Positions 2,774 through 58,374 of a stretch of 64,000 bases of DNA are shown piece after piece (within the stretch, counting starts at the first letter, position 1; every line of letters begins with the position of its first letter). The stretch lies in the IMG/VR virus record IMGVR_UViG_3300034062_002168. One strand, given 5' to 3'. The translations under genes and the position numbers were made by a program. The stretch is from an uncultured virus (IMG/VR IMGVR_UViG_3300034062_002168). Lineage: Duplodnaviria; Heunggongvirae; Uroviricota; Caudoviricetes. A model generated the notes under the pieces. The model searched no databases. It had not been told where the DNA came from and worked only from the letters and a program-made list of their open reading frames with translations.

Positions 2774-5700
2774 TTACTCTGGTCGCCTAGGCACTCTTGC
2801 TGGCCTTTGCGTAGTACCGGTCGGTCTTGCCTTGGCCTTGGGCTTCTTCCCGTATACACTGATCCCTCCACCAAGCAGTCCGTAGAATGAAAGGAATCCT
2901 TCAAGCGCACCCGGATCCTCCTGCATCAAATCACCGACCGTACCAACGTAAAGTGGCATCAGACGCTCGTTGAACTCGTCCTTGAACACGTAAGGATCCT
3001 TGTCGTACTTACTGTATCGCTTACCGTCCTTTCCTATGGTGGTTCTGGCGGCTTCGACAAGGAACGATGCCGATGGGGATAGTTTATTCATGGCCATGGT
3101 CAGGCCAACATCGAACATCGTTGGGGTTCCGAACCCCTTCCCAAGTGGCATCGTTTTGTCTCCGCGCTTGTACGCGTCGATAGGCTTGTCCATGAAAAGA
3201 CTGATGCCTCCAATGGTCATCCTAGTCATGGCTACAGCCTGCTGCACCCGACCACCCCACGGGTCAATTCGAATATCTCCGAGTCGGATCTTCCCAAAGT
3301 CTGAGCTTCTTGGGTCCGTTTCAACATACGTTTCATCGTCGTCGTCTCCGGCAAGGGCGATAGCGGCCAGCGTAACAACACCCATCGTAGTGCCAATGAA
3401 CCTGCCCATATCAAGGACGGCCATCTTTCTGGCGGTTGGCGTCATCTTGCCGAAGTGATACAATCCGTATGGAGTTCCTGTCTTGATGGCCGACGCCCAC
3501 ATCCTTGGAGAGTAGAACATTCGGGTCAGACCCTTGGAGAATCCTTCTAGCGCCCCCAGTGATGCACGGCCCGTCAAAGTGTTCACCACGTCGGCCACGT
3601 CCTTGTAGTCCTGAGTGGTAACCTCCTTGCCATTGATGTCAGCCTTGCGGGCCTCCAGCATCTTCACTCCCTCTAGATATCGCTCGACTCGCAGCGTATC
3701 CAGATATGCGCTTGCGCCCCTCTCCAGCGCCCTGAATGGGTTGGCGGCCACCCACTTGTCGTGAGCCGCCCTGCTTTTCAACAAAAGCGGGGATCCGGCG
3801 ATAGCCCACGCGATACGCGTCCAGTCGGACATGAACAACTCCTCCCTTCCGGTAAGCTCTGCGTGCGGCTGTGTGATGGCCAGCTTTGCCTCCTTCGCCT
3901 GATCGTACCAAGGCTGGGCCTTGATCTTGCGGAGCCAATCCTCCGACTTCTTTTCGCTGTTCATGGCGGTGAACATATTCTTGAACGCACTAGCAACAAC
4001 ATCCGGCCTTCGCCACATATTGCTTACTGTCAGTGCGCCGCCCTGCAAGAGAACGAACGACAGATCAAGCGTTGACTGAACGGCACGCAGAACACCCCAA
4101 GCCTCCCATCCGGCATCGCCAAGGCGTTGGCTTGTGGTCCTGTTGCGCATCATCTCCTTGTAGAAGTCGGCATCGTACTGCTCCTTGATACGCTCCTTCT
4201 CTGCGCGAAGTATAGTTAGCTCGTCGTCTGCAATGGTCTTGCGAACGGGCTTCTTTGAGAAGTCCTGATCCGCGACCCTGCGCTCGAGTTCTGCAATGCG
4301 TTTTTTGGTAGCCTTCTTAGCCGCCTCGGTCCTCCTGCGATCAACAACGCCAGCCTCGTCCTGTAGCTTCTTGTAGTCGTCGCGTAACTTGCTCAGATTT
4401 TGCCGAGCTATCTTCAACTCTGGAGTTTCGCGTACCGGAGTTGGCTTCTTTGGATCCAGTTCGTTATCTGCGATCCTGCGCTCGTACTCGTCGATCGACC
4501 TACGGATAGAGTCGAGTGCGGACTTCACTCGCATCTCCTCGGTAACTACCCTTTTCCCGAACACGCGGTCGTGCTCCTCCTTGAGCATGTCGCGCTCCTT
4601 GATCAGTGCTGCCAGTTCGCTGTCAGGAACGATGCCGGACTGATTCCTTTCAGCACGCTCCTTGGTGTCAATCTCCCTTTGAAGATCCTCGATGCGGTTG
4701 CGGGCGCGGGTCTTGGCCGCTTCAAGTGCCGTCTTCAAGACACGATCGTTTTCTGCCTGATCCATGGGCAGGTCCCTCATCGCGTCACGCAGCTTGTTAT
4801 GAAGAGCACGCTGTTCTGCGTCCAGCTTGTCGCGCTGCAATCCACTGCGCATTGGACGCATCTTTTTCTCTATGTCCTCCAGAGCGGATGCTACACGACC
4901 AATATCCTTCATCCTGCGGATGGCGACAGATATTTCGTCCTTACTCATGTTCACCACCTTCCCGTATCCGGTGATGGCGTCACGTATCTCGCGGTCGGAA
5001 GCGTCAGGGTACCGGTCCTTGATCTGCTCCTTAATAACTGATACCAGCATGTCGATATCGCGGATTCCGGCAGCAACAGCGTTGCGGATCATGGCAACAG
5101 GAACCTTGACGCGTTCGTTTCCAAACCCCTCCGAAGCTCCCTTTACGGCATCCTCTAGCTGGCTCATTACGGCCATCTTGTTCCGGTCATCCAGAGATGA
5201 GAACCACTTCTGCTTGTTCAGCTTCTCCGCCATTGCGGTAACAGCATCGGCGACTTGTCCGGTCTTCTCGATGGCCTTCGCTCCAACCTCGATCAATTCG
5301 TTCCAGTCGAACGGCAGGGCAGACCCCAGCTTGGTGATGTTGATCGGATTGCCGTCGGCATCCAGAATAACGATAGGCTTTGTCTTCAGTGTTCTGAACT
5401 GGTCGGCCATACGCTTGGCCTGACTGGAGTACTTGCCGGACTTCTTTCGGTTGTTTTCACGAATCACCGACTCAGCTATGGACTGAATGGCCTCCTTGGC
5501 CTGAGCCTCCTCTTCACGCTTCTCTGCCGCGTCAATTTTCTTCTTGAGCTCGGCCAGCTTCTCGTCCCTCTTGCGCCAGCCGTCCATGATCTCCTTGGAT
5601 GGACGCTCTCCAAACTTGTCCTCCCATTCCTTGGCCTTCTTCTCGGAATGGTATCCAAGGTCAGAGTTCTTCAGGATGTCGCCCCATGCGGAGTTGAATC

Positions 5701-8700
5701 GACCGGCAGCAAGCTGCATGTCTCCGATCTCCTGAACCATCTCTGCCTGCTTTGCAACAAGCTCTTGGTGCGTAGTGGGGTCTGTGGACTCCGCTATCTC
5801 GTTGTCTAGTTGACGGAGAGCCTCGTCCCACACGAACGCCGCAGCACCACCCTCCATGTCCTTGTTCCTAACGGCATCCACGGCTGCGTCGATGCCGACC
5901 GATTCGATCAGCTTCTTGGCCTTCTCGCGTGCCTCTGCCCGACTTTCAACCTCCCTGAACAGGCCCAGCTTGCGGACTTCTTCGCGCACCTCGTCGCGGA
6001 AGGATCCTTCATAAACCCGCTGGCCAGCAAAAGTCTTCTTCACTCCTTCGCCAACGGGCTTCTGTGGTGCCTGTTTTGGTGGGGCGGCCTTGCGTGCAGC
6101 GGCGGCATCGCGAAGCTTGTCGAACTCGGCCATGACCTGATCCACCATGCGGTCGGCTCCCTTGGAGACCATGTACTCGCGGGCCTTGGCCTTGGTGTTG
6201 TATCCCTTCGCGATCAGTGCCTTGGCAATGTTTTCTGGTGATGCTCCCGAGAACTTGATGTTAGAAGAACCCTTGATTTCACTGACAAGCTCGGCAACGT
6301 CATTAGTGACAGTTGATTTTACGTTCAACTGGTCATCCATTCTAGCATAGGCCCAGACATACTCCTTTGGGAAGCCAGCAGAGTCCTCCTCATCGCTTAT
6401 GGCATCAGGATCTTCATACTTGGTCAACCCGTACACAACGCCATCCACATTGATCACCGAGTGCCAGTCAGACCATAGGTTAAAGGAGTTGCTGTCCGTC
6501 ACGCGCTTCGGCTTCTCTGTTGGCTTCGGAACTAGCTTTTCGGCCTCGTATAGGCTATACCCTTCGTAGTTGTCGTCTTCTGATGGATCGTAGTTGTCGC
6601 GATCCTCATTGGTCATGGCCTTGACCTTCTCCGCACCGGCCCTTACTTCGGCTGGGGTCTTCTTCGAGAACTTCGGACCACCAAACCCCTTCGCCTCCTT
6701 CGCGTTCTGCTTGTCACGATCAGCACGGGCCTTCGCCATCAGCTTCTCGTAGTACGGATCCACGGACTTGGTCAGGTCAACAACGCCCTCCTCCTCGTAC
6801 TTCTTGGTCAGCTTGGCGTCCGGGGCCAATGACTTGCCTGACTCTGCGCGAAGCGGGTACATCGACCAGCCAGCGATCATCATGTCGAAGCCAGCCTTCT
6901 CCGCCAGAGGCCCAATGAAGTCGGCCTGACGGACAGCGTCGAACGCCTGATCCTTGCCGAACTTCTTGCGGAAATTGGCCTCCGCCTTGTCGTACAGATC
7001 CAGTGGATCGGACATCAGCGGGTACACCTTCCACTTGGGTACCGGTACTGCGTAGGTCACGTCACCCTTGATCATCCGCTCACCTTGATCCGGCTTGGTG
7101 TAGTAGTTCATCACCGGGTTGCTCCGGTTGTCCTTGGTCTTTCCTGTGCCGAAGTAGGCTGGGTCGATCTTGCCACCCTTCAGCTTGGCTGGTCCCTTGT
7201 GGAAGAAGACGTAGTTGCCCTTGCCGTCGTCGGTTAGGTTATCTCGGTGCTCTTGCGGAACCCTGTTCTTGCCGGGCGTGGCTTTTGAGAACTTGGGCTT
7301 GTCGGCCTCGCTTACAGAGTCGTTGCGCCCATCCTCGCTGACCCACATTGGCATAAGCCCGATCTTCTGGTCGGCATATACGGTTTCGCCACTTTTTGCG
7401 GTCCTATTCTTCTCCCCGTATGGGCCGTAGTTGACCCAGCTATTCTGGCCACGAGTCAATGTGGTAAGTGCCCTCTGTGCTGGTGGCGTGAGCATGGAGG
7501 AGTGAGCCCTCCATGCGTTCTCCTCTCCATTGGCACGGAAGCCGACGCCCTCCTTTACGTGACCGAAGTAGTCATGAACCATTCGGAACAACTCCTGCTT
7601 TGTAAGCTCATGGTCTCCGGCAAACCTTCCGGTCTTCTGAAGGGGCTTCAGGTCCTTTACGCCGTCAAGGTCCATACGAACAACGTCCGGAGTTCCCATC
7701 GTACTCTTGTCCCACCCACTAGGAGCGTACTCGTCATTCCACTTGATCCTCTCTGTTTCCTTTGCTCCGCGCTTGGCATAGCTGCTTGCTAGGTACGTAT
7801 CGAACGCCCATAGGTGCGTGCCGCCAAGACCCTTCCCGATCTGCAACGCTTGGTCCATCATTCCGCTCGGACCACCGGCCGACTTGAATAGGCCAATAAG
7901 CTCACCGTCGTCCGCAATGCCGAACCCGGCCTTTCCGCCAGAGTACAGGAACAGCCTGCCCTTGAAGTCCTTTGGCAGGGAAGAAACTTGGCCCCTGTCC
8001 TTGGCGCCCATGGAGGCCCTAGCGGCCTCAAGAGCCTTTGAGAAGTCGGACGGAGTGGCCCTTACAAATGGGCCGTACCCACCATCGGACGGGTACACCC
8101 ATACGTGGTTATTGTCCCTAATATCCACCGTAGACCCCCATGGGTTGCCGTTGTACGGATCTGCGGACAGTGGATCCATGATCTCGACATCAAGACCTGT
8201 CTTTTCTATGATCTCATCATACTGTGCCAAGACCTCAGTATCCAAGGCATCGAAGTCAGCAGCCACCTCCGGATTCTCCGGATCGTGCTTCATCTTCTCG
8301 TACTCGTCGGCGATGCGCTTGGCGCGATCAGGGTCCACCTCGACGTAGTCGGATGGAGGGTTGTACGGAAGACCGGCCTTCTTCATGTAGGAGATGGCCA
8401 CGTCCTCTGCTGGCTTCCAGTGAGACGCCTCCATCTCCTTGCCTCCGACCTTGAATTTGCGAGGGAGTCCGTTCAGGCTTCCGTCCGGCTGTCGCTTGGA
8501 GAACTTTGGCTTGTCGGCCTCCTGTAGTTCGGACCCCATCCAGCCCGGGGTGGAGATACCGCCAAACAGATCAGATACTGCTGCGCGGGCGCCATCAGGA
8601 TCGCTGGGCATGGCCTTCCACACGTCACTCGCCGAGCTACCTGCGCCAGCTTTTTGCCCCTTCTCGAATAATCCGCGAACCGCCTCCCATGTAATGGACT

Positions 8701-11700
8701 GCATCTCTCTCGGGAGCAGACCCCTCTGCTTGGCAGCGATCTCGTAAGCGCGCTGGTAAATCGGATACAGCCCGGAGTGGCCCGAGGCGCTGTCCGATAG
8801 TCCGCCAAACCCAGCAGTGGTTATCGGGCTGCTACCAGACAGCGGCAGGAACATCGCCGCAGCCATGGCGTGGGTATCAATGGTGGTGAAGTCTGGAGAC
8901 GATGGATCGAATATGTTATTGTAGAAGCTCCTGACTTTGTGAGCTTCTCCGATCCCTCGACTCACGACATCGATGCTAGTACCGTTCTCTGCAATATCGA
9001 TTGCAGCGGCGATCGACTTGGCGTTCTGCCATGCGATCTTGGACGGAACGCCAACTGGATCTGGATTCTTCTTTGTCGGCTTCGGTGCCTTGTTTCTTTG
9101 AATGACGGTCTTTTCTCCTGTGGGGAGGTACTGGTTGAACGACGGGTCATTGTTGGCCTCGTCCCATATCCGCAAGAACCAAGCCTTGTCGTTGCCGCTC
9201 GTCAGGTCGCTGTAAACCTTGCCAGATATCCTAGGTATGGCAATATCCAGCTTCTCTACCGCAGACTCATAGCTCCGAAGCTCCTTGCGCTTCTTGTCGT
9301 TGTTGGGGTTTTTGGCCAGCGACTTTTTCGCCTTGCCTATCTTGTCAGTGTAGTCATCCTTGATCTTCTGGGCGCGATCGGACATCGCAGAATCCCACTT
9401 GTGGTCCCTATGATTGGTGACAAAGTCCAAAACCCTCTCGGCCAATGACATGTTGGTGAACCAGTCCTTCTGAGGAGACAACGCAGCTATCACACCGGCG
9501 GTCTGCGCTGGCGTTACGCCATACGTCTTGGCCCACTCGAGTGAGACCTTGTTCGCCCCAACGTACCACTCCTTGGCCAACTTCCTAACATCCTCTGGGA
9601 ACGAGTCATGCAAGTACAGGATATTGCCTACCATCCGGTCGATAGCCTTGGCGATCCTCGTCTTTGCCGACCCGCTGCCGATCCTCATGCCCGGATACTT
9701 TGCCAGCATGTCCGCCGCTTTGTTTAGCGCCTTGTCGGACATAGCGTCCATGTCCACCGCCGCCGGGTCTACCGCCGCCAAATTGTGGTCGTATGGTCGC
9801 GCCTTAGTGCCGGGCGTTCTTGCCGCAAGACGAGAAAACTTAGAACCAGCTCCTGTCCCACTGCCCCCAGCCTTCTTGCCAGTCTCAATCTTCCTCCCCG
9901 CCTTCATCGCGCTGGCGATCTGCTTGGCCGCAGCGATGAAGTCTCCGTCCTCCTTGAACTCCACCTTGGTTGATACCCCAAGAGCGGCCATGATCCGGTT
10001 GTACATGTCACGGATGAACTGGCGCATGGCGTTGTCCAGCTTGATGGTCCCGTTGTAGATGGAGGCAACGAACTCAGACATTACCTCCTCCGCAAGTCCT
10101 TCGTCTGCGATGGTTGCATCAATATCGACGGTGCCGTCCTCTTTCTTCTTTGCCCCTCCATAGTATCCCAAGAAGTCAATCAGCGCCTCCTTGGCCTTTG
10201 GCGATGACTCAAGAGCCTGCTTGGCCGAGCTAGAGATGATGGCCTTACCGTTCGGATTGCCAGATAGAAGGGCGTTGAAGATGATGGCGTGAGTGCCCTC
10301 GTGGGCTACAACACCACGGCGGAATCTGTCTCGGTTGATGTAGATCTTTCCATTACGGCCCATGAAGAATCCTCCGCTAAGGGATTGGGAGATATCTCCA
10401 CCGACTTTATCCACGGCTTCGGTGTATTCATCCTGATCCAGCCCGACCACTTCTGCCCCCGTAGCCTTGGACACCTTAGCCATCTCGGCGTCAATATCCT
10501 CGTCAGACACCACCTCCCTTGGAACGCCCATTGCCTCTTCAAGCAGGGCGTCCGGGTCGTCGGCAACCTCCTCGTCGATGGTTATCTCGGCGTCATCGTT
10601 GGGGTCAACGGGAGCCTGTTGGGGGGCCTGCTTCTGAGGGCCAGCCATCCGCTGCAACTCGGCCTCGATCTCCTTCTTGTTGTTCTCGTAGAACTGGACC
10701 GCCTCGGGAGAGTCCATCTTCTTCCCGGCGGCGATGTCGTCGGCGAACGACTTGACGGTCATCTGGCCTCCTGTCGATGCGGGTGCCTGAGGCTTCTTCC
10801 TGCCCTCTATGGCCTCAATCATTCGCAGCGCATGGTCCTCTGCCTCTTGCGCCGTAGCGAAGCCGTCCTTTGAGGCTCCCTTGTTGGCAAGGAACTTTCC
10901 GTCTCCTATCGATGGGGCTACGATTACACTATACCCATCTTTATGTTGTTCAATTAGAACTTGAACATTCTCTGATCTGTATTTACCTGTCTGCGGGTTC
11001 TTAGAAGCATCCGATTCTTCCCATTGAGTAATAAGATCACCGTTCCTATCTCTTCCTAACGAGACCTCGGCACCCCATGAGATCTTGGGCTTGGCGCTGT
11101 CTTGATCTTGCGTGGCCGTGGGGGCTACTCGTCCTTGGGGCTTGGTTTCTGTGGCTTGGGTACCTGAGACAGGAGCAGTCGCTCCCTTAGTGTTCGCCGC
11201 TTGGGCTGCTCCGACTCCTTCTGATTCATCGCGTAACTTTTGTTTATGGTTTTCAAGAAGTTCAATATCGGCACCAAGCTGCGCGGCATACGAGTCGATC
11301 TGATCCAAGGTCAAGAGACGATTCGGATCATTGCGCATAGACATCACGTCCTTGTACTTTTTGTACATCCATGATGAAGCGGCCTCAATGTCAACTGCCG
11401 ACACGGGGATGTTGTCCTCAACCCTTCCAAACGTAATGACAACGGACTCTGGCAGATCTTCCAGCGGGTCGAAATCCACCCCGAGCTCCTGACGCGCACG
11501 AAGAATTTCGTCACGAACCTCCGGGCTTACTGGAACAGGCGCCTGTGGTGGTGCCGGAGCTTCCGTCTTTACATCGCCTTCTTTGGCCGTTGGCTCCACG
11601 CCAGCCAGCTTCATCAACTTGGCATCAATGGCGGCTATCTTGTCGCCCACCAATGCCTTGTCCATCTTGGCCAGCTTGGCCTTCTGGGTCAGCAGGTCGA

Positions 11701-14170
11701 AGGCTTCGCGGCGCTTCTCTGTCGGGAGGTCTTCGGGTATCTTGGATACGATCTGCTGGGATTCTTTCCACGCAGAGATGGTATCGTCAGCTTGGACTTT
11801 GCTGATCTTGCCTGATTCTACTTGGCGATTGAGTTGCTCCTGCATCATTGGCAGGTACTCGGGGTTCTTCAGCGTCTCTTCAAGCAACTCAAACTGCGTG
11901 TCCGTGGTTACTTCCCCTACGTTCTTCTTGGCTCTACGCGCGGCGGCGAGAGCAGGTATCTGACCCATAATAAGACCGCCCATACCTTCATCTGCCATGG
12001 ACATCACGGTGCCCTGAGCGTACTCACCCCATGACTTGGGTAGTTCAAACTTGCCGTCCTCTCCGAGGAAGCGGTTGAACATATCCTTTATCGCCACATC
12101 AGTGATGTACTGTACGCCACCTGTCTCTGCTTCGGAGATGGTCGATCCAGCAGAACGGATGACGTAGTTCATCACAGCGTCAGTGGTCTCGGCATTGATG
12201 ACAGCCTCGATCTGTTCCTTGGTTGCGTTCTTTGGTAGGCTGGCAAGTGACCGCGCCAGTAACTGTTTGACGAACGGGTTATTTGCGGCTAGGTTGGAGA
12301 AACCCATGCGCTCCAGTGCGGTTGCTGGAAGAGCAAGCAATGCTGCCATGGCGTTTTTCTCTCCCTCCGGTACTCCGTCCCACTCCTCGCCACGCATCTC
12401 TTCCTTGGCTTCAGCGTACACCTGAAGGAAGATGCCGGACATCATGGGCGTAGCCATGGCCGTGGATGACTTCATCAGCCCCAGCCAAGACCTTCCGAAC
12501 AGCCCCTTATTCATCTCGGCTTCGTACTCTTCCGTGGTGCCAGATCGCCACAGGTTCATACCAGCTTCTTTGAACGCAGGAATGATCTCGCGCTTCCACT
12601 CCTTAGCGAGTTGATCGCGGGATTTACCAGCCTCACCGTCAATGGTAGGCAGCATGGATTCCGGAGTAAGTCCAGCGATAAGGTCAATGCTAATTTCTGG
12701 AAACACAGACGCCATGGATAACACGCCCTCAACGATGGCGTTATGCGAGGCTCCTAAGAACCCACCTTGCTTGCTCTTCAGGTTGTACTCCTGAAGGTCG
12801 GCCTTCTGGTAATCTGCCTCAACAGAACGAGCCAAGTCCTTAATGGATTCGGCCTGCTTGTTGGCAGAAGCAACCATCTGGTTGTAGCGATCCACGTCAG
12901 CTTGATGCTGGGCTTGAAGCTGCGGGGCAATGGCTGGGTTCTCTGCCATCTGCTGCTGCGCTTGGGCAAGGTCGGATTCTAGTTGGACCCTTGCTTCCTC
13001 CAGCGCCTTCTTGTCCGCCTCCAGTCCAGCTTGCTGCTGCTGGATAAGTTGCATCTTCTGCGGTATCTTCTTCTTGAACTCCTTGACAGCAGCTAGGTCC
13101 ATGGGAGCGAACTCCTTGCGAAACTCCTGCTCTCCGGGAGTCATAAAGGTGTTGGTCTGATCCACGGCTACCGATGCCATGTCCGGCTCCTGCGTAATGC
13201 GGGATGCTCCGATCAGGTCAAGCGGCAGTTCTCGTGGAACGAACTTAGGCTTTGTCTGCCCCGCGCCGGGCCCAGCAGGAGATCCACCGGACGACCTTTG
13301 CCCGCTTGACACCGGCTCTCTAGATATATTAGAGTCATCCCTTCCATACTCAACAATAAGGTTGGGGCTGCTTTTCTTAAGAGAGTCGATTCGGTCCTGA
13401 AGAAGCGTAATGGATGGTCCGTTAAATGATGACGAACTTTCGGCGATGTACTTACGACCAGCGGTATCTGTGATCAGCATACCGATGTGATCCACACCCT
13501 TTCCGCCAGTTCGCATGAACACGTAGTCTCCGCGGGAAGCCTCCTCTGGCTTCAATGGTTTAGACTTTGATGCAATGGTCGCTGCCGACGTGTATAGTGG
13601 ATCGTAAGCCTTATCTCTGAACTTGTTAACAACGGCACACATAGCACCACTGCAATCCACCTCCTGATCCGTGGTGCTGCCCAATGACGAAATATTGCCA
13701 GTGCCTTTGGCTCCCAGTTTATACTTTTTGCCCTTGGTCAGAGATACAAATTCACGAACTAGTGGGTCGTCAGACAGGCTGTCAGTGTAATCCATAAACT
13801 CCCTGCCGGACTTGTCCTTAATAATGGCAGGTGGCGAAGCCATAGGAGCGGGCGGCGCCTTGAGAAAAGGGGGAGGTTCGTTGACTTGCTGCCGGGGCGG
13901 ATTAACCGGCTGAATTGCCTTGGGCTGCCCCGCGCCGGACCCAGCAGGCGAACTCCCAGCCACCGAAGTGGATGGTGAAACCATAGGCGCGGACGGGGCT
14001 TGCGTAAAAGGGGGCGCAGTCCGATCTACTTTATCGGTTGATTTGCCGCTACGCATCCGGTTAAGCGCATCAGATAGTGGATCAGCCGCTTGAGCAGGCT
14101 CCTTAGCTGAACGCAGTTTGGTAATGGCATCCTTCAACGGATCGCCACCTTGTACTTGTTCCTGTTCCAT
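2774..14170 (-). CDS. Giant (3798 aa) polyvalent virion/ejection protein: NlpC/P60-like amidase, HExxH zincin, DUF7178/glycosylase-like, GNAT, HDYFGH domain, possible ART-like domain, coiled coils
   Basis: Motifs DCSG...DHIG, AHEGTH, VIAALSPQ...KVRSFYNNI...TIDTHA, GELIGLF...LWAFDTYL, VHDYFGH...GEENAW; repeated KFS linkers; follows two probable ejection genes. Confidence 0.85.
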   Translation of the reverse strand: MEQEQVQGGDPLKDAITKLRSAKEPAQAADPLSDALNRMRSGKSTDKVDRTAPPFTQAPSAPMVSPSTSVAGSSPAGSGAGQPKAIQPVNPPRQQVNEPPPFLKAPPAPMASPPAIIKDKSGREFMDYTDSLSDDPLVREFVSLTKGKKYKLGAKGTGNISSLGSTTDQEVDCSGAMCAVVNKFRDKAYDPLYTSAATIASKSKPLKPEEASRGDYVFMRTGGKGVDHIGMLITDTAGRKYIAESSSSFNGPSITLLQDRIDSLKKSSPNLIVEYGRDDSNISREPVSSGQRSSGGSPAGPGAGQTKPKFVPRELPLDLIGASRITQEPDMASVAVDQTNTFMTPGEQEFRKEFAPMDLAAVKEFKKKIPQKMQLIQQQQAGLEADKKALEEARVQLESDLAQAQQQMAENPAIAPQLQAQHQADVDRYNQMVASANKQAESIKDLARSVEADYQKADLQEYNLKSKQGGFLGASHNAIVEGVLSMASVFPEISIDLIAGLTPESMLPTIDGEAGKSRDQLAKEWKREIIPAFKEAGMNLWRSGTTEEYEAEMNKGLFGRSWLGLMKSSTAMATPMMSGIFLQVYAEAKEEMRGEEWDGVPEGEKNAMAALLALPATALERMGFSNLAANNPFVKQLLARSLASLPKNATKEQIEAVINAETTDAVMNYVIRSAGSTISEAETGGVQYITDVAIKDMFNRFLGEDGKFELPKSWGEYAQGTVMSMADEGMGGLIMGQIPALAAARRAKKNVGEVTTDTQFELLEETLKNPEYLPMMQEQLNRQVESGKISKVQADDTISAWKESQQIVSKIPEDLPTEKRREAFDLLTQKAKLAKMDKALVGDKIAAIDAKLMKLAGVEPTAKEGDVKTEAPAPPQAPVPVSPEVRDEILRARQELGVDFDPLEDLPESVVITFGRVEDNIPVSAVDIEAASSWMYKKYKDVMSMRNDPNRLLTLDQIDSYAAQLGADIELLENHKQKLRDESEGVGAAQAANTKGATAPVSGTQATETKPQGRVAPTATQDQDSAKPKISWGAEVSLGRDRNGDLITQWEESDASKNPQTGKYRSENVQVLIEQHKDGYSVIVAPSIGDGKFLANKGASKDGFATAQEAEDHALRMIEAIEGRKKPQAPASTGGQMTVKSFADDIAAGKKMDSPEAVQFYENNKKEIEAELQRMAGPQKQAPQQAPVDPNDDAEITIDEEVADDPDALLEEAMGVPREVVSDEDIDAEMAKVSKATGAEVVGLDQDEYTEAVDKVGGDISQSLSGGFFMGRNGKIYINRDRFRRGVVAHEGTHAIIFNALLSGNPNGKAIISSSAKQALESSPKAKEALIDFLGYYGGAKKKEDGTVDIDATIADEGLAEEVMSEFVASIYNGTIKLDNAMRQFIRDMYNRIMAALGVSTKVEFKEDGDFIAAAKQIASAMKAGRKIETGKKAGGSGTGAGSKFSRLAARTPGTKARPYDHNLAAVDPAAVDMDAMSDKALNKAADMLAKYPGMRIGSGSAKTRIAKAIDRMVGNILYLHDSFPEDVRKLAKEWYVGANKVSLEWAKTYGVTPAQTAGVIAALSPQKDWFTNMSLAERVLDFVTNHRDHKWDSAMSDRAQKIKDDYTDKIGKAKKSLAKNPNNDKKRKELRSYESAVEKLDIAIPRISGKVYSDLTSGNDKAWFLRIWDEANNDPSFNQYLPTGEKTVIQRNKAPKPTKKNPDPVGVPSKIAWQNAKSIAAAIDIAENGTSIDVVSRGIGEAHKVRSFYNNIFDPSSPDFTTIDTHAMAAAMFLPLSGSSPITTAGFGGLSDSASGHSGLYPIYQRAYEIAAKQRGLLPREMQSITWEAVRGLFEKGQKAGAGSSASDVWKAMPSDPDGARAAVSDLFGGISTPGWMGSELQEADKPKFSKRQPDGSLNGLPRKFKVGGKEMEASHWKPAEDVAISYMKKAGLPYNPPSDYVEVDPDRAKRIADEYEKMKHDPENPEVAADFDALDTEVLAQYDEIIEKTGLDVEIMDPLSADPYNGNPWGSTVDIRDNNHVWVYPSDGGYGPFVRATPSDFSKALEAARASMGAKDRGQVSSLPKDFKGRLFLYSGGKAGFGIADDGELIGLFKSAGGPSGMMDQALQIGKGLGGTHLWAFDTYLASSYAKRGAKETERIKWNDEYAPSGWDKSTMGTPDVVRMDLDGVKDLKPLQKTGRFAGDHELTKQELFRMVHDYFGHVKEGVGFRANGEENAWRAHSSMLTPPAQRALTTLTRGQNSWVNYGPYGEKNRTAKSGETVYADQKIGLMPMWVSEDGRNDSVSEADKPKFSKATPGKNRVPQEHRDNLTDDGKGNYVFFHKGPAKLKGGKIDPAYFGTGKTKDNRSNPVMNYYTKPDQGERMIKGDVTYAVPVPKWKVYPLMSDPLDLYDKAEANFRKKFGKDQAFDAVRQADFIGPLAEKAGFDMMIAGWSMYPLRAESGKSLAPDAKLTKKYEEEGVVDLTKSVDPYYEKLMAKARADRDKQNAKEAKGFGGPKFSKKTPAEVRAGAEKVKAMTNEDRDNYDPSEDDNYEGYSLYEAEKLVPKPTEKPKRVTDSNSFNLWSDWHSVINVDGVVYGLTKYEDPDAISDEEDSAGFPKEYVWAYARMDDQLNVKSTVTNDVAELVSEIKGSSNIKFSGASPENIAKALIAKGYNTKAKAREYMVSKGADRMVDQVMAEFDKLRDAAAARKAAPPKQAPQKPVGEGVKKTFAGQRVYEGSFRDEVREEVRKLGLFREVESRAEAREKAKKLIESVGIDAAVDAVRNKDMEGGAAAFVWDEALRQLDNEIAESTDPTTHQELVAKQAEMVQEIGDMQLAAGRFNSAWGDILKNSDLGYHSEKKAKEWEDKFGERPSKEIMDGWRKRDEKLAELKKKIDAAEKREEEAQAKEAIQSIAESVIRENNRKKSGKYSSQAKRMADQFRTLKTKPIVILDADGNPINITKLGSALPFDWNELIEVGAKAIEKTGQVADAVTAMAEKLNKQKWFSSLDDRNKMAVMSQLEDAVKGASEGFGNERVKVPVAMIRNAVAAGIRDIDMLVSVIKEQIKDRYPDASDREIRDAITGYGKVVNMSKDEISVAIRRMKDIGRVASALEDIEKKMRPMRSGLQRDKLDAEQRALHNKLRDAMRDLPMDQAENDRVLKTALEAAKTRARNRIEDLQREIDTKERAERNQSGIVPDSELAALIKERDMLKEEHDRVFGKRVVTEEMRVKSALDSIRRSIDEYERRIADNELDPKKPTPVRETPELKIARQNLSKLRDDYKKLQDEAGVVDRRRTEAAKKATKKRIAELERRVADQDFSKKPVRKTIADDELTILRAEKERIKEQYDADFYKEMMRNRTTSQRLGDAGWEAWGVLRAVQSTLDLSFVLLQGGALTVSNMWRRPDVVASAFKNMFTAMNSEKKSEDWLRKIKAQPWYDQAKEAKLAITQPHAELTGREELFMSDWTRIAWAIAGSPLLLKSRAAHDKWVAANPFRALERGASAYLDTLRVERYLEGVKMLEARKADINGKEVTTQDYKDVADVVNTLTGRASLGALEGFSKGLTRMFYSPRMWASAIKTGTPYGLYHFGKMTPTARKMAVLDMGRFIGTTMGVVTLAAIALAGDDDDETYVETDPRSSDFGKIRLGDIRIDPWGGRVQQAVAMTRMTIGGISLFMDKPIDAYKRGDKTMPLGKGFGTPTMFDVGLTMAMNKLSPSASFLVEAARTTIGKDGKRYSKYDKDPYVFKDEFNERLMPLYVGTVGDLMQEDPGALEGFLSFYGLLGGGISVYGKKPKAKARPTGTTQRPARVPRRPE

Positions 14171-32660: not shown

Positions 32661-32762
32661 GGCCCCAAAGGTACGAAGGATTTGTTATCGGTAAAATTTG
32701 TTGTAACCACCTGATTATCAGGGAGTTATGTAGATTTGTACCGTAACCAACACATCAACACC

Positions 32763-33116
32763 ATGGAGATCACCTTCGTGCCCACCGGCGAAACCGTACA
32801 AGTAGGACTTGGAGCCTGCACCCCACAGGCCCTTGCTGGCTACACGTCGAACCCCATCTACCTGACCACGCCTTCTGGCTATACGCCTGTTCAGGGCACG
32901 ATGGCGGCTGGCTCCAGCGCCAACTTCCCCATGATCGGTCAGTACAACCAGCCAGCCATTGGATTCTACTCTGCCAATGTACACGCCTACCTCGTGACCA
33001 AGTTCACGATGGATGACGCCGCTGCTGTGACGACCGGGATGGCTACCATCTCCACCGCACTTGACGCTGGCGACGCAACTCTGCTCATCAACAGCGATGG
33101 CACTGCTGGTAGCTAA
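32763..33116 (+). CDS. Small probable structural protein
   Basis: ATG 32763 after TAGATTTG box (32731-32738); biased codons; followed by a terminator. Confidence 0.65.
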   Translation: MEITFVPTGETVQVGLGACTPQALAGYTSNPIYLTTPSGYTPVQGTMAAGSSANFPMIGQYNQPAIGFYSANVHAYLVTKFTMDDAAAVTTGMATISTALDAGDATLLINSDGTAGS

Positions 33117-40700: not shown

Positions 40701-40701
40701 G

Positions 40702-40774
40702 TGTACCAAGTAGGACTCGAACCTACGACCCTCCACCATCAAGGTGGTCGCTCATCCATACGAGCTATTGGCAC
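40702..40774 (-). tRNA. Atypical tRNA (nominal anticodon TGA, short variable loop, identity uncertain)
   Basis: GTGCCAA TA GCTC-GTATGGAT-GAGC G ACCAC-CTTGATG-GTGGA GGGTC GTAGG-TTCGAGT-CCTAC TTGGTAC A; CCA not encoded. Confidence 0.8.
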
Positions 40775-48665: not shown

Positions 48666-48773
48666 CCTTAACACCTAGAACGCCATGAACATCATCTTCG
48701 CCTCCTACGCCGTAACGATGGCCGCTGCCATCCTGCTCCTTTCCATCATCCGTTACAACACCAACAAACAGCC

Positions 48774-48962
48774 ATGAACGACCAACAGATCATCGACCTG
48801 CTTCTTGAACTCGACGAGACCATCAACTCGCTGCGCGAAAGGTTCACCGTCTACAGCCATAAAAAAACGCCACTGCATCAGCGGGTGGCCGAGGCAGCGC
48901 GCATCCTGCGAGACCGCCAGCCCACCACCATCGGCGAACTAGAGAAGAAGGGACGCATCTAA
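48774..48962 (+). CDS. Early hypothetical protein
   Basis: 62 aa, A/C-rich leader. Confidence 0.6.
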   Translation: MNDQQIIDLLLELDETINSLRERFTVYSHKKTPLHQRVAEAARILRDRQPTTIGELEKKGRI

Positions 48963-49342: not shown

Positions 49343-49424
49343 TTGTTGATAACTTCAACCATCACCACCACGAAACGTAACTGAACAACCACTACTTTTG
49401 CATCACCAACAAAACACAACGACC

Positions 49425-49766
49425 ATGAACTACCTACTGAACATCGGCATGGACCGCAATGACGGACCAGCCAACACTGACGGACAACTGATGATGGCCC
49501 TGCTCCGCGCTGACATCATCCACATGGGCGAAGTGTCCTACGTGCAGAGCAACACAGAGCGCACCGCCGTGGTGCAGATGGAGAAGGAGCCCAACGCCTT
49601 CCAAGTGGAGTACCTGTGCCAGCTATTGGGTCAGGAGTCCATCGCCCTGTACCGCATGAGCGAGGGTACCGGGGTGCTGTACGGTCCCAAGGCCGAGGAG
49701 TGGGGGCCGTTCAACCCCGAGTTCTTCTACCTGCCTGACGGCACGAAGCTATCCTCGATGCGCTGA
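49425..49766 (+). CDS. Early hypothetical phage protein; stop codon lies inside the hammerhead core
   Basis: Promoter box TACTTTTG at 49393-49400; LGQESIALY...GVLYGPKAEEWGPFNPEFF. Confidence 0.75.
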   Translation: MNYLLNIGMDRNDGPANTDGQLMMALLRADIIHMGEVSYVQSNTERTAVVQMEKEPNAFQVEYLCQLLGQESIALYRMSEGTGVLYGPKAEEWGPFNPEFFYLPDGTKLSSMR

Positions 49767-49809
49767 CGAGGCCGGAAGGCCGAAACTAGGGTACGCCCTA
49801 GTCCGCATC
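49757..49809 (+). ncRNA. Type I hammerhead ribozyme
   Basis: GATGCG | CTGACGA | GGCC-GGAA-GGCC | GAAA | CTAGGG-TACG-CCCTAG | TC^ | CGCATC: all core nucleotides and three perfect stems. Confidence 0.93.
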
Positions 49810-49822
49810 TAAACGCGACACA

Positions 49823-49966
49823 ATGAAACACTGCCCACTGTGCCAATCACCCAGCAGCAAGCTGGGCAAGATGGGTCAAATGACGTGGTATCGCTGCTCA
49901 GGCTGCGGTATGCAGCACTTCACCACCCACCCTTCTATGAACAAGTCTAAGACCAAGAAAGCATGA
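49823..49966 (+). CDS. 47-aa zinc-ribbon protein
   Basis: Hand translation MKHCPLCQ...WYRCSGCGMQ; ATGA overlap with the next gene. Confidence 0.65.
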   Translation: MKHCPLCQSPSSKLGKMGQMTWYRCSGCGMQHFTTHPSMNKSKTKKA

Positions 49967-50342: not shown

Positions 50343-50834
50343 ATGCCACAGACAATCCACACCGTTGTGTACCTGTTCCACGAACTGAGCGACAAGGCCA
50401 AGGACAAGGCCCGCCAATGGTGGCGCGAAGTCGGCACCGATAACGACTGGTGGGAACAGGTCTACGAAGATGCCGAACAGGTGGGCATCAAGATCATAGG
50501 CTTTGACATTGGCCGGGGACAGTGCATCGACACCCAAATTCACGATGCCGACAACACCGCCGCCCTGATCCTTGAGAACCACGGCGAAGGGTGCGACACA
50601 TACCAAGCCGCCCGGAAGTATTGGGGCGCCGTGAAGGCGGCGAACGATGCCGACCAAGAGGACATTTGTGACGTGCTGGCGGACCTTCGTTCGGACTTCA
50701 TTGGTGAAGTGGAACGATGCTACCTCAAGTCCCTGCACGAGCAGTACGAGTACGAGATGTCCGACGAGAACATCGCGGAGAACATCGAGGCCCAAGGATA
50801 CACCTTCACGGCCGATGGAAAGCGCTTCGGATAG
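50343..50834 (+). CDS. Acidic early phage protein
   Basis: VYLFHELSDKAKDKARQWW...YEYEMSDE...YTFTADG. Confidence 0.75.
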   Translation: MPQTIHTVVYLFHELSDKAKDKARQWWREVGTDNDWWEQVYEDAEQVGIKIIGFDIGRGQCIDTQIHDADNTAALILENHGEGCDTYQAARKYWGAVKAANDADQEDICDVLADLRSDFIGEVERCYLKSLHEQYEYEMSDENIAENIEAQGYTFTADGKRFG

Positions 50835-50870
50835 ACAACGCACCCAAACCAAAACTAACACCTAGAACCA

Positions 50871-51494
50871 ATGAACACCGAAACATTCGCCAAGTACAAG
50901 GATAAGCTGGAGGCCATCGCCTCCGAACTGGGATACACACTCCACGCTGATATGCTCGACTCCGAGAACGACTGGTGGCCTTGGTCCCTCGTCCGTCTGA
51001 TGTCGGGGACCGCCGCCCTGCCCGACATCCACATCGACGAGACCACCTACGGGGCGAACAAGGGCCGGGGACAAGCCAGCCTGTGCCTCCCCGCTGACCC
51101 TTGGGGGAATAGTGTGGGCCGGGACATGCCCAGCACCTCGTTCGACTTCTCGCGAGGATCCAAGGCCATTGCTGGTCAACTCCGAAAGCTGATCAACTCC
51201 GAGGCATACGGCAAGGCGCTGGTGGAGATCAAGCAGCGTGTGGAACGTCACGAGGCAAGGGTGAGCGCAGCGCTGGACCTGTCGATGGCACTGAAGGGGT
51301 CGAAGCTGGCCTTCAAGGAGGCCCATACCAACGGCAACAATCCCGACCACTCCGGTGACGTGAAGATGATGTACTACGTGGACAACTTCGGCACCATCGA
51401 GATCGGCTACGGAGGAAGCTACTACATCAAGCCCGATGCGACCACGGCCAGCGCATGGCGTATCGCTGCTGCTATCAATGCCCTGCTGTCATGA
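50871..51494 (+). CDS. Early hypothetical protein
   Basis: 207 aa, CTAGAA in the leader. Confidence 0.7.
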   Translation: MNTETFAKYKDKLEAIASELGYTLHADMLDSENDWWPWSLVRLMSGTAALPDIHIDETTYGANKGRGQASLCLPADPWGNSVGRDMPSTSFDFSRGSKAIAGQLRKLINSEAYGKALVEIKQRVERHEARVSAALDLSMALKGSKLAFKEAHTNGNNPDHSGDVKMMYYVDNFGTIEIGYGGSYYIKPDATTASAWRIAAAINALLS

Positions 51495-57105: not shown

Positions 57106-58374
57106 ATGGATTACAAGCCATCCGACTCCCTCCCATACCAGCTTACGGCCATTCACTCCATGCTCTGCGGAGGGCTGGATGAAATGGTCGGCACCCTGAG
57201 CGACGAGCACTTTGGTGACGAACGGGCGCTGACCATCTGGAGCAACTGCAAGAAGATGCGTCTGTCCGGGTACGAGGTCACTCCACAGTCAGTCCGTGAG
57301 TTCGTTCTGGCAGAAGCCGGTGATACCGATGCCGCAGCATTGGTCGATGAGGCCATAAACTCGCCGCTGATCAGCACGGCGCTGGCTGTACGGACCCTGA
57401 CCACCATGAGGGCCAGACAGCTTGCCTCAGATCTTGGAAAGTACCTTGTGAGCCAAGACGCCGCCAAGGATGGGGTAGAGGCCGTGGTGTCCAAGATCGC
57501 CCGCTTCTCCATGTCGTACAGCGTGATCACCTCGGAGCAGTACCAGACCTTGGGTGACTTCATGGCGAACATCGACAAGCCGGGAGACAAGCCACTGATC
57601 ATCACTCCGGGCTTTGGTGAGATCGACAAGCACCTCCGCTTCCGACCCGGCACCATGAACTTGCTGGCCGCTCCCCCGGGCGTTGGCAAGACTGCCACCC
57701 TGCTGAACATGGCGGTCAACGCTGCCTACCAAGGCCACGCATCTCTGACGATCAGCTTAGAGATGCCAGCCTATGACCTGAACGCACGGTTGACGGCCAT
57801 TATTGCTGGTGTATCTGCCTTCAACGTGAAGGAGAAGAGCATGAGCCAGCAGGAGATAGACCATGTGCTTTCCGTCCGAGAGGGGTACGCCAACATCATT
57901 GACAGGGTCGGCTTAGTAGCCCCGGTGAGGATGCACGTAGACGCCCTGCTGGCCGAGATATCCAAGTGGCAGAAGGAGAAGGACATCAAGATCGTGTTCG
58001 CGGATTACGCCCAGCTTTTCGGATCATCTGGCAAGAGCGAGTACGAGGAGGTTACGTACATCAGCAAGGTCATCATGCAGACGGCCAAGCTGGCTGGCAT
58101 CCCGATAGTTGCCGTCTCCAGCACAAGGAGGAAGGGTAAGGACGAGACTGGCGGACCTTCGATGCACGATCTTCGCTCCTCTGGAAAGCTGGAGTACGAT
58201 AGCAATACCATCACCATGGTGTCACGTAACAAGGACAACAAGAACATCCTCCAGATGGACATTGTGAAGAATAGGGACGGAGGACTTTTTGGCTGCGATC
58301 TGTACTACGACTTTATCACGCAGCGCATTAGGGCCAACGATCCGGTTCCGTTCACTCCAAAGGCATCGGCATGA
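57106..58374 (+). CDS. dnaB: DnaB-like replicative helicase
   Basis: Walker A AAPPGVGKT, ISLEM, FADYAQL, DLRSSGKLEYDS, IVKNRDG. Confidence 0.92.
   Translation: MDYKPSDSLPYQLTAIHSMLCGGLDEMVGTLSDEHFGDERALTIWSNCKKMRLSGYEVTPQSVREFVLAEAGDTDAAALVDEAINSPLISTALAVRTLTTMRARQLASDLGKYLVSQDAAKDGVEAVVSKIARFSMSYSVITSEQYQTLGDFMANIDKPGDKPLIITPGFGEIDKHLRFRPGTMNLLAAPPGVGKTATLLNMAVNAAYQGHASLTISLEMPAYDLNARLTAIIAGVSAFNVKEKSMSQQEIDHVLSVREGYANIIDRVGLVAPVRMHVDALLAEISKWQKEKDIKIVFADYAQLFGSSGKSEYEEVTYISKVIMQTAKLAGIPIVAVSSTRRKGKDETGGPSMHDLRSSGKLEYDSNTITMVSRNKDNKNILQMDIVKNRDGGLFGCDLYYDFITQRIRANDPVPFTPKASA

Follow-up and report, generated by a model that had tools for sequence, protein, structure and literature searches.

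Should a ribozyme whose catalytic core also supplies the stop codon of a protein-coding gene be read as a control device, in which translation decides upon RNA cleavage, or as an ordinary processing element into which the neighboring gene simply runs? This question is raised by 64,000 nucleotides of DNA from an uncultured virus assigned to the Caudoviricetes (IMG/VR record IMGVR_UViG_3300034062_002168), the whole of which is called the window hereafter. An earlier note had described a hammerhead ribozyme between two small genes of the window and had proposed that ribosomes terminating in its core gate the cleavage. The reading that we favor, with a probability of roughly 78% and on the basis of comparative sequence analysis, is that of a functional, self-cleaving type I hammerhead situated in a run of same-strand genes, its overlap with the stop codon resulting from gene packing.

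Sequence and predicted fold together define a complete type I hammerhead, with an open stem I and with stems II and III closed by loops (Table 1). All core positions agree with the consensus (C3 U4 G5 A6 N7 G8 A9 and G12 A13 A14), the pairs A15.1-U16.1 and G10.1-C11.1 are present, and position 17 is not a G. The hammerhead core consensus is well established and agrees with the alignment lines of the Rfam models. The same consensus, which we take to apply here, places the predicted cut between 49803 and 49804. Both the minimum-energy and the centroid fold of the 53-mer reproduce the exact hammerhead junction (-23.6 kcal/mol, z = -2.97), and 0 of 200 shuffled versions fold as well as the native sequence. 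The description of the element as a complete canonical hammerhead is thereby upheld in each of its parts and coordinates, and we regard it as a genuine type I ribozyme for which self-cleavage is predicted.

Table 1. Features of the ribozyme and of its two flanking genes, with positions in the window.
Feature	Position	Strand	Remark
Upstream gene, phrog_11722 family	49398..49766	+	PHROG E 4.4e-15; ends in core UGA
Type I hammerhead, complete	49757-49809	+	
Stem I 5' strand GATGCG (GAUGCG)	49757-49762	+	also encodes the last codons of the upstream gene (..S M R)
Catalytic core C3-A9, CTGACGA (CUGACGA)	49763-49769	+	columns invariant in family alignment
Stem II GGCC-GGAA-GGCC, 4 bp, GNRA-type loop GGAA	49770-49781	+	G10.1-C11.1 closing pair
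Core G12 A13 A14 (GAA)	49782-49784	+	invariant in family alignment
Stem III hairpin A-CTAGGG-TACG-CCCTAG-T, 7 bp including A15.1-U16.1, loop UACG	49785-49802	+	
C17, predicted cleavage nucleotide	49803	+	position from hammerhead consensus
Stem I 3' strand CGCATC (CGCAUC)	49804-49809	+	predicted 5' end of downstream RNA after the cut
UAA directly 3' of stem I	49810-49812	+	U conserved family-wide
Downstream 47-aa gene, two Cys pairs (CPLC...CSGC)	49823..49966	+	ATG at 49823

A chance look-alike, or a plain pair of stabilizing hairpins devoid of catalysis, would be the simplest dismissal of this locus. When 200 windows of 64 kb were simulated with a first-order Markov model and searched on both strands with a relaxed descriptor (stems of at least 4, 3 and 4 bp), two matches were obtained in total, the better with 15 stem pairs against 17 in the native element. 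Since none of the 200 simulated windows reaches 17 stem pairs, a chance origin is excluded. The loose core pattern on its own is uninformative, with 13 matches against 10.6 expected. What speaks for a look-alike is that no Rfam model exceeds its threshold and that catalysis is here a prediction from sequence; against it stand the simulated windows, the consensus base at every core position and the strong covariation within the family that is described below, which leave such an explanation a negligible probability.

The Rfam result nevertheless deserves attention, as the search of the window with the hammerhead models, which the earlier note had recommended as a check, returned no hammerhead at gathering score; a tRNA was the sole match. 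This tRNA (40701-40774, minus strand, 43.5 bits) is the single one of the phage and is called by ARAGORN as tRNA-Ser with anticodon UGA. Bacterial tRNA-Ser usually has a long variable arm; the phage molecule measures only 74 nt and lacks it. In a permissive Rfam scan of positions 49650-49900 the best alignment was to RAGATH-1-hammerhead, with 19.6 bits against a cut-off of 56.3 (E 0.45), followed by a permuted partial match to Hammerhead_3 (14.5 bits against 48.5) and a twister match at noise level. Because the scan reduces overlapping matches of a clan to the best one, the scores of the remaining clan models, among them Hammerhead_1, did not exceed that of Hammerhead_3. The ribozyme resembles RAGATH-1 (RF03152) in its type I layout, 5-bp stem I, CUGAnGA and CGAAAC motifs, hairpin stem III and GUC triplet, over model positions 26-77 of 77, but differs in stem II and leaves the 25 model positions at the 5' end unmatched. 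Membership in RAGATH-1 was rejected, given 19.6 bits against 56.3 and the absence of the 5' element (positions 1-25). As every structural element of a hammerhead is in place, we read the Rfam miss as a gap in model coverage for a phage subfamily. A large subfamily of hammerheads in freshwater phages thus escapes the Rfam thresholds, which matters for ribozyme annotation in viromes.

Relatives were collected by exact match to the 24 nt of the window that comprise core and stem II, a probe that is uninformative on stems I and III. It was found in 11 loci of viral contigs (10 contigs) and in 52 metagenome loci; in bacterial genomes it occurred in one locus only, within a Patescibacteria MAG. In 42 of 49 distinct contexts the probe lies in a perfect type I hammerhead whose stems I and III measure at least 4 bp and vary in sequence. 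On inspection, most of the remaining seven likewise proved to be hammerheads, which deviate by a single mismatch, by a stem I of only 3 bp or by a stem III that is long and imperfect. A search of viral contigs with a degenerate core pattern yielded 10 loci, nine of which lack a paired stem II, and this set was left unused. The tenth (L017, around position 201, minus strand) appears by eye to be a type III hammerhead, with stems I and II closed and stem III open.

From nine 53-nt members, the window excluded, we built a covariance model, R1, which obtained 76 matches in 68 loci. It recognizes the ribozyme of the window as the sole match in 64 kb with 61.4 bits (E ~1e-19), a score of which only the contribution of stems I and III is independent, the relatives having been found by the window's own 24-mer. 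Across 56 distinct aligned relatives, 97.0% of the cells are paired against 64.2% in shuffles, in an alignment that is fitted to the model and favors pairing; the count of 42 in 49 contexts given above is free of that bias. Of the 17 pairs, 15 are changed on both sides, and the covariation score of 0.700 against 0.149 was attained in 0 of 500 shuffles. When the 3' strand is displaced by one to three columns, pairing falls to 31-45%. Stem II is paired in 100% of the relatives, and six of the seven pairs of stem III are altered on both sides.

Altogether, these relatives constitute a widespread hammerhead subfamily of uncultured phages, characterized by an open stem I of 6 bp, a stem II of 4 bp capped by a GNRA loop, and a stem III that forms a hairpin. 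Counting the window, stem I measures exactly 6 bp in 36 of 52 distinct contexts and 5-7 bp in 49; position H17 is occupied by C in 48 of them and by A in four. The base 3' of stem I is a U in 48 of the 52 and is followed by A-rich positions, which the window continues with its UAA. Stem II has 4 bp and a GNRA-type loop in most of the copies inspected. Fast natural hammerheads depend on a tertiary contact that joins stem I to loop II, a general principle stated in Perreault 2011 (PMC3088659), and the U at 49810 is probably a candidate nucleotide for contacting the GNRA-type loop II. In seven loci from several other phage lineages (L008, L009, L025, L038, L044, L070 and L075) the 3' strand of stem I reads GGGAGG, GGAGG or AGGAGG and an ATG follows 9-17 nt past the cut. 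Cleavage in these loci would place a Shine-Dalgarno-like sequence at the extreme 5' end of the downstream RNA. The corresponding strand of the window, CGCAUC, is not Shine-Dalgarno-like.

The distribution of the family also bears on whether the module might be a hitch-hiker or selfish element, one that spreads between intergenic sites of phages, for instance by recombination at its borders, and persists as a harmless insertion with no part in gene expression. Its occurrence is patchy: the upstream gene has three distant homologs (38-41% identity), and their loci show neither a hammerhead core nor an R1 match. Core and stem II are nearly identical in many unrelated contigs, several of which carry two to four or more hammerhead copies with identical stem I; the phage of the window has a single copy. 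What speaks against such a module is that stems I and III remain paired through numerous compensatory changes, which indicate that the hammerhead fold is under selection. Its placement is consistent as well: it closely follows a stop codon, and the next start, called crudely across the family, lies at a median distance of ~27 nt past the cut. Fold interference from upstream sequence is avoided, as described further below. We thus consider mere hitch-hiking to be very unlikely.

Variation among strains was assessed with contigs from four of the 20 lake-water metagenome runs in which the stretch is present; all of these contigs are DNA, and no RNA run appears among the 20. Compared with the window, contig X19 (record 12) shows 36 differences over 995 positions, and contig X17 (record 1) shows 7 over 670. 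Neither has an indel or any difference in 49743-49857, and ribozyme, core stop and leader are unchanged in both, although invariance of the 53 nt is weak evidence when taken alone, since the more diverged contig, at its mean divergence, would be expected to show only about 1.9 changes there. In X19, nine of the 12 differences in 49697-49742 fall on third positions of the upstream frame, and all five differences in 49858-49936 occupy third codon positions of the 47-aa frame. As strain differences concentrate at third codon positions and GC3 is high, both flanking ORFs are real genes. The nearest genome, G001, contains a hammerhead copy identical to that of the window.

The differences in X19 are unevenly spread: 12 are crowded into 46 nt (49697-49742) just ahead of the ribozyme, and the 136 nt that follow (49743-49878) have none. 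This pattern may mark a mosaic or recombination border at the 5' edge of the ribozyme, and the fact that the divergence hot spot ends 15 nt before the ribozyme would suit a spreading module. In G001 about 290 extra bases (C168, ~32680-32967) stand directly after the 47-aa gene, where the window, at ~49969, passes straight to a ProQ-C-like gene. G002, the nearest virus record, does not extend over the region, and distant blastn with a 1.5-kb query against phage records gave no match.

The genes around the ribozyme belong to a run of small ORFs with high GC3 and short gaps that occupies ~41.8-61 kb of the plus strand and leads to a DnaB-like helicase (57106-58374); the portal gene lies on the minus strand. 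The upstream gene (GC3 0.83) encodes 122 residues, of which residues 10-114 align to positions 2-123 of 124 of the phrog_11722 profile. The alignment begins at an in-frame ATG (49425, residue 10), which is probably the true start. The protein also matches S-AdoMet lyase in Pfam, but below threshold (14.7 against 28). For the downstream gene, the earlier note had spoken of a 47-aa zinc-ribbon protein: the gene is real and has four cysteines, whereas matches to Lar-like and zinc-ribbon domains are sub-threshold throughout (Pfam Lar_restr_allev, 18.6 bits against a cut-off of 28.6). The following gene comes near Phage_ProQ_C_like, again below threshold (25.2 against 27). Taken together, these sub-threshold domain matches hint weakly at functions in host takeover. 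No relatives were found of the downstream 124-aa gene.

Other signals near the ribozyme are sparse. A scan for promoters and terminators remained at chance level, with no site above chance near the ribozyme, and three spacers of the gene array (49343-49400, 48666-48776 and 50830-50875) have no significant structure, with z-scores of -1.46, -0.21 and 0.28. The plus-strand leaders before the starts at 48774, 49425, 49823 and 50871 are A/C-rich and lack an obvious ribosome-binding site of the GGAG type, which suggests a host with Shine-Dalgarno-independent initiation. Elsewhere in the window, an ORF of 3798 aa (2774-14170, minus strand) combines an N-terminal NlpC/P60 peptidase domain with a DUF7178 region and probably encodes a giant virion or ejection protein. 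This ORF had raised the suspicion of an N4-like phage, which was rejected as only the NlpC/P60 and DUF7178 domains match.

The feature that makes the locus unusual at first sight is the end of the upstream frame, ATG CGC TGA at 49758-49766, by which the UGA at 49764-49766 lies within the hammerhead core, as the earlier note had reported. In order to see how common such an arrangement is in the family, we took 56 distinct hammerhead contexts, counting that of the window, and recorded in each the longest ORF that has 40 codons or more and ends between 75 nt upstream and the cut. Its stop is the core UGA in 17 contexts, overlaps the 5' strand of stem I in 18, lies 1-9 nt before stem I in 10 and more than 9 nt before it in five, and falls inside the ribozyme 3' of the core in one; five contexts were left unassigned. 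A tie-break by GC3 alters four assignments and gives 16 for the core UGA and 19 for stem I. Stated otherwise, of the 51 upstream ORFs that could be assigned, 45 end within the ribozyme or no more than 9 nt ahead of stem I, and none credibly extends past the cut; no significance is claimed for these counts, as the surveyed hammerhead copies are not independent. The core-UGA case occurs with 12 of 33 distinct stem I sequences. The stop codon of the window is thus ordinary, being one common outcome of a family-wide habit. Full-text searching of the literature, through titles and the openings of abstracts, found no paper that describes an overlap or coupling of stop codon and hammerhead in phage DNA; the survey accordingly quantifies a habit undescribed in the searched literature, namely that the upstream stop is nearly always within the ribozyme or at most 9 nt away.

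Such regularity could be taken as a sign of translational gating. According to this explanation the stop has been selected into the core and ribosomes that finish the upstream gene hold stem I and the core unfolded, by which translation of the upstream gene would set cleavage and the fate of the downstream RNA. By known footprints, a ribosome with the UGA of 49764-66 in its A site covers the 5' strand of stem I, the core and part of stem II. The flush position of 45 of the 51 stops and the retention of the overlap in two strain variants without indels are in line with gating. For steric reasons, stem I and the core have to be unfolded when a ribosome terminates there, and this holds for nearly every member of the family. 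The position of the stop, however, varies between core, stem I and the nucleotides before it, and such variation fits equally well with gene packing together with the simple demand that an ORF must end before the cut. The three upstream-gene homologs without a ribozyme, which have differing C-terminal tails, count against gating as well. As to the conservation of the overlap, which the earlier note had wished to see checked, the overlap is kept in both strain contigs and is missing with the ribozyme itself at the distant homologs.

A further point on which gating can be judged is the competition between folds. With 30 nt of upstream and 20 nt of downstream sequence, the minimum-energy structure is an alternative fold in which 49733-49742 pair with stem II; it is more stable by 5.6 kcal/mol than any fold containing the hammerhead, a gap that shrinks to 2.3 kcal/mol with 5 nt downstream. 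This might resemble a switch, but the upstream 30 nt of the window compete no more than shuffled sequences do (rank 14 of 100), and among 54 members of the family native upstream sequences are weaker competitors than shuffled ones, with a median rank of 78 of 100 and only 2 of 54 at rank 10 or below. In the family, upstream sequence avoids interference with the fold. Moreover, a pair-by-pair reading reveals that natural strain changes at 49733, 49736, 49739 and 49742 affect the alternative helix, four of whose pairs are lost or weakened. Owing to shuffle ranks, family ranks and strain changes, there is no sign of an evolved switch, and an evolved anti-ribozyme pairing was rejected on the grounds of rank 14 of 100, its lack of standing as a family trait and its weakening by strain changes.

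Translational gating of the locus is for these reasons an unlikely explanation, and the idea that the overlap is a special, selected gating device is not borne out by the frequency of core stops, their variable position, the homologs and the fold competition. It is similarly doubtful that flush stop placement is a selected design of the subfamily as a whole, in which finishing ribosomes would time the folding of the ribozyme or the release of the downstream RNA from stem I. Should this be the case, cleavage would couple the expression of neighboring genes to translation and would not be constitutive. In the reading that we prefer, the upstream gene would read on to the first in-frame stop, which is the invariant UGA of the core. 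A stop in the core is expected if a gene reads into the ribozyme with this UGA in frame, and it would represent a by-product of gene packing, not a demonstrated control device.

What would a ribozyme at this place do for the phage? We propose that it would be transcribed within the message of small, tightly packed genes of the same strand; the term "early polycistron" used for this message in the earlier note is plausible from gene order only. After folding, the RNA would cut itself at the predicted site. The upstream piece would retain a complete ORF, since the stop lies 37-39 nt before the cut, and would carry at its 3' end the compact ribozyme, terminated by a 2',3'-cyclic phosphate. The RNA downstream of the cut would begin with a 5'-OH and a 19-nt A/C-rich leader ahead of the 47-aa gene, as had been put forward before; the start codon stands where this leader demands, and the nature of both ends is predicted from hammerhead chemistry. 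The likely effect would be to uncouple stability and expression of the neighboring genes. Against this reading one may set the low Rfam scores, the alternative fold that is the more stable with flanking sequence, the single copy in this phage and the three distant homologs of the upstream gene that do without a ribozyme.

Ribozymes of this kind have precedents. Perreault 2011 (PMC3088659) describes in its main text hammerheads in phages and prophages, among them tandem sets that flank single genes, and reports cleavage of polycistronic transcripts of ~2 kb in vitro and in E. coli; in one instance the anti-restriction gene ardA stands directly downstream of a hammerhead. In that main text, "stop codon" and "overlap" have 0 occurrences each. 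With these gene-flanking type I hammerheads (clan CL00010, Hammerhead_1 RF00163) the ribozyme of the window shares the core, the three-way junction, the open stem I and the position between small same-strand phage genes. It differs from the tandem arrays, for which processing has been demonstrated (PMC3088659), in being a single copy, and from the clan in that no clan model exceeds 14.5 bits on it, that no pseudoknot is evident and that its subfamily is characterized by a 6-bp stem I, a conserved U and a GNRA loop II. According to NAR 2026 (PMC13725137), the type I form of the hammerhead is usual in the DNA of bacteria and phages. The hammerheads of RNA mycoviruses treated there are likewise of type I, with a long helix III, a short intergenic location and a cut few nucleotides before a start codon; they belong to eukaryotic RNA viruses and have been proposed to play a role in translation initiation, whereas the window derives from a DNA phage. 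In comparison with these systems the biology of the present locus is ordinary and offers a clean additional example of the known gene-flanking phage hammerheads, while the numbers on stop codons abutting the ribozyme raise the question of translation coupling.
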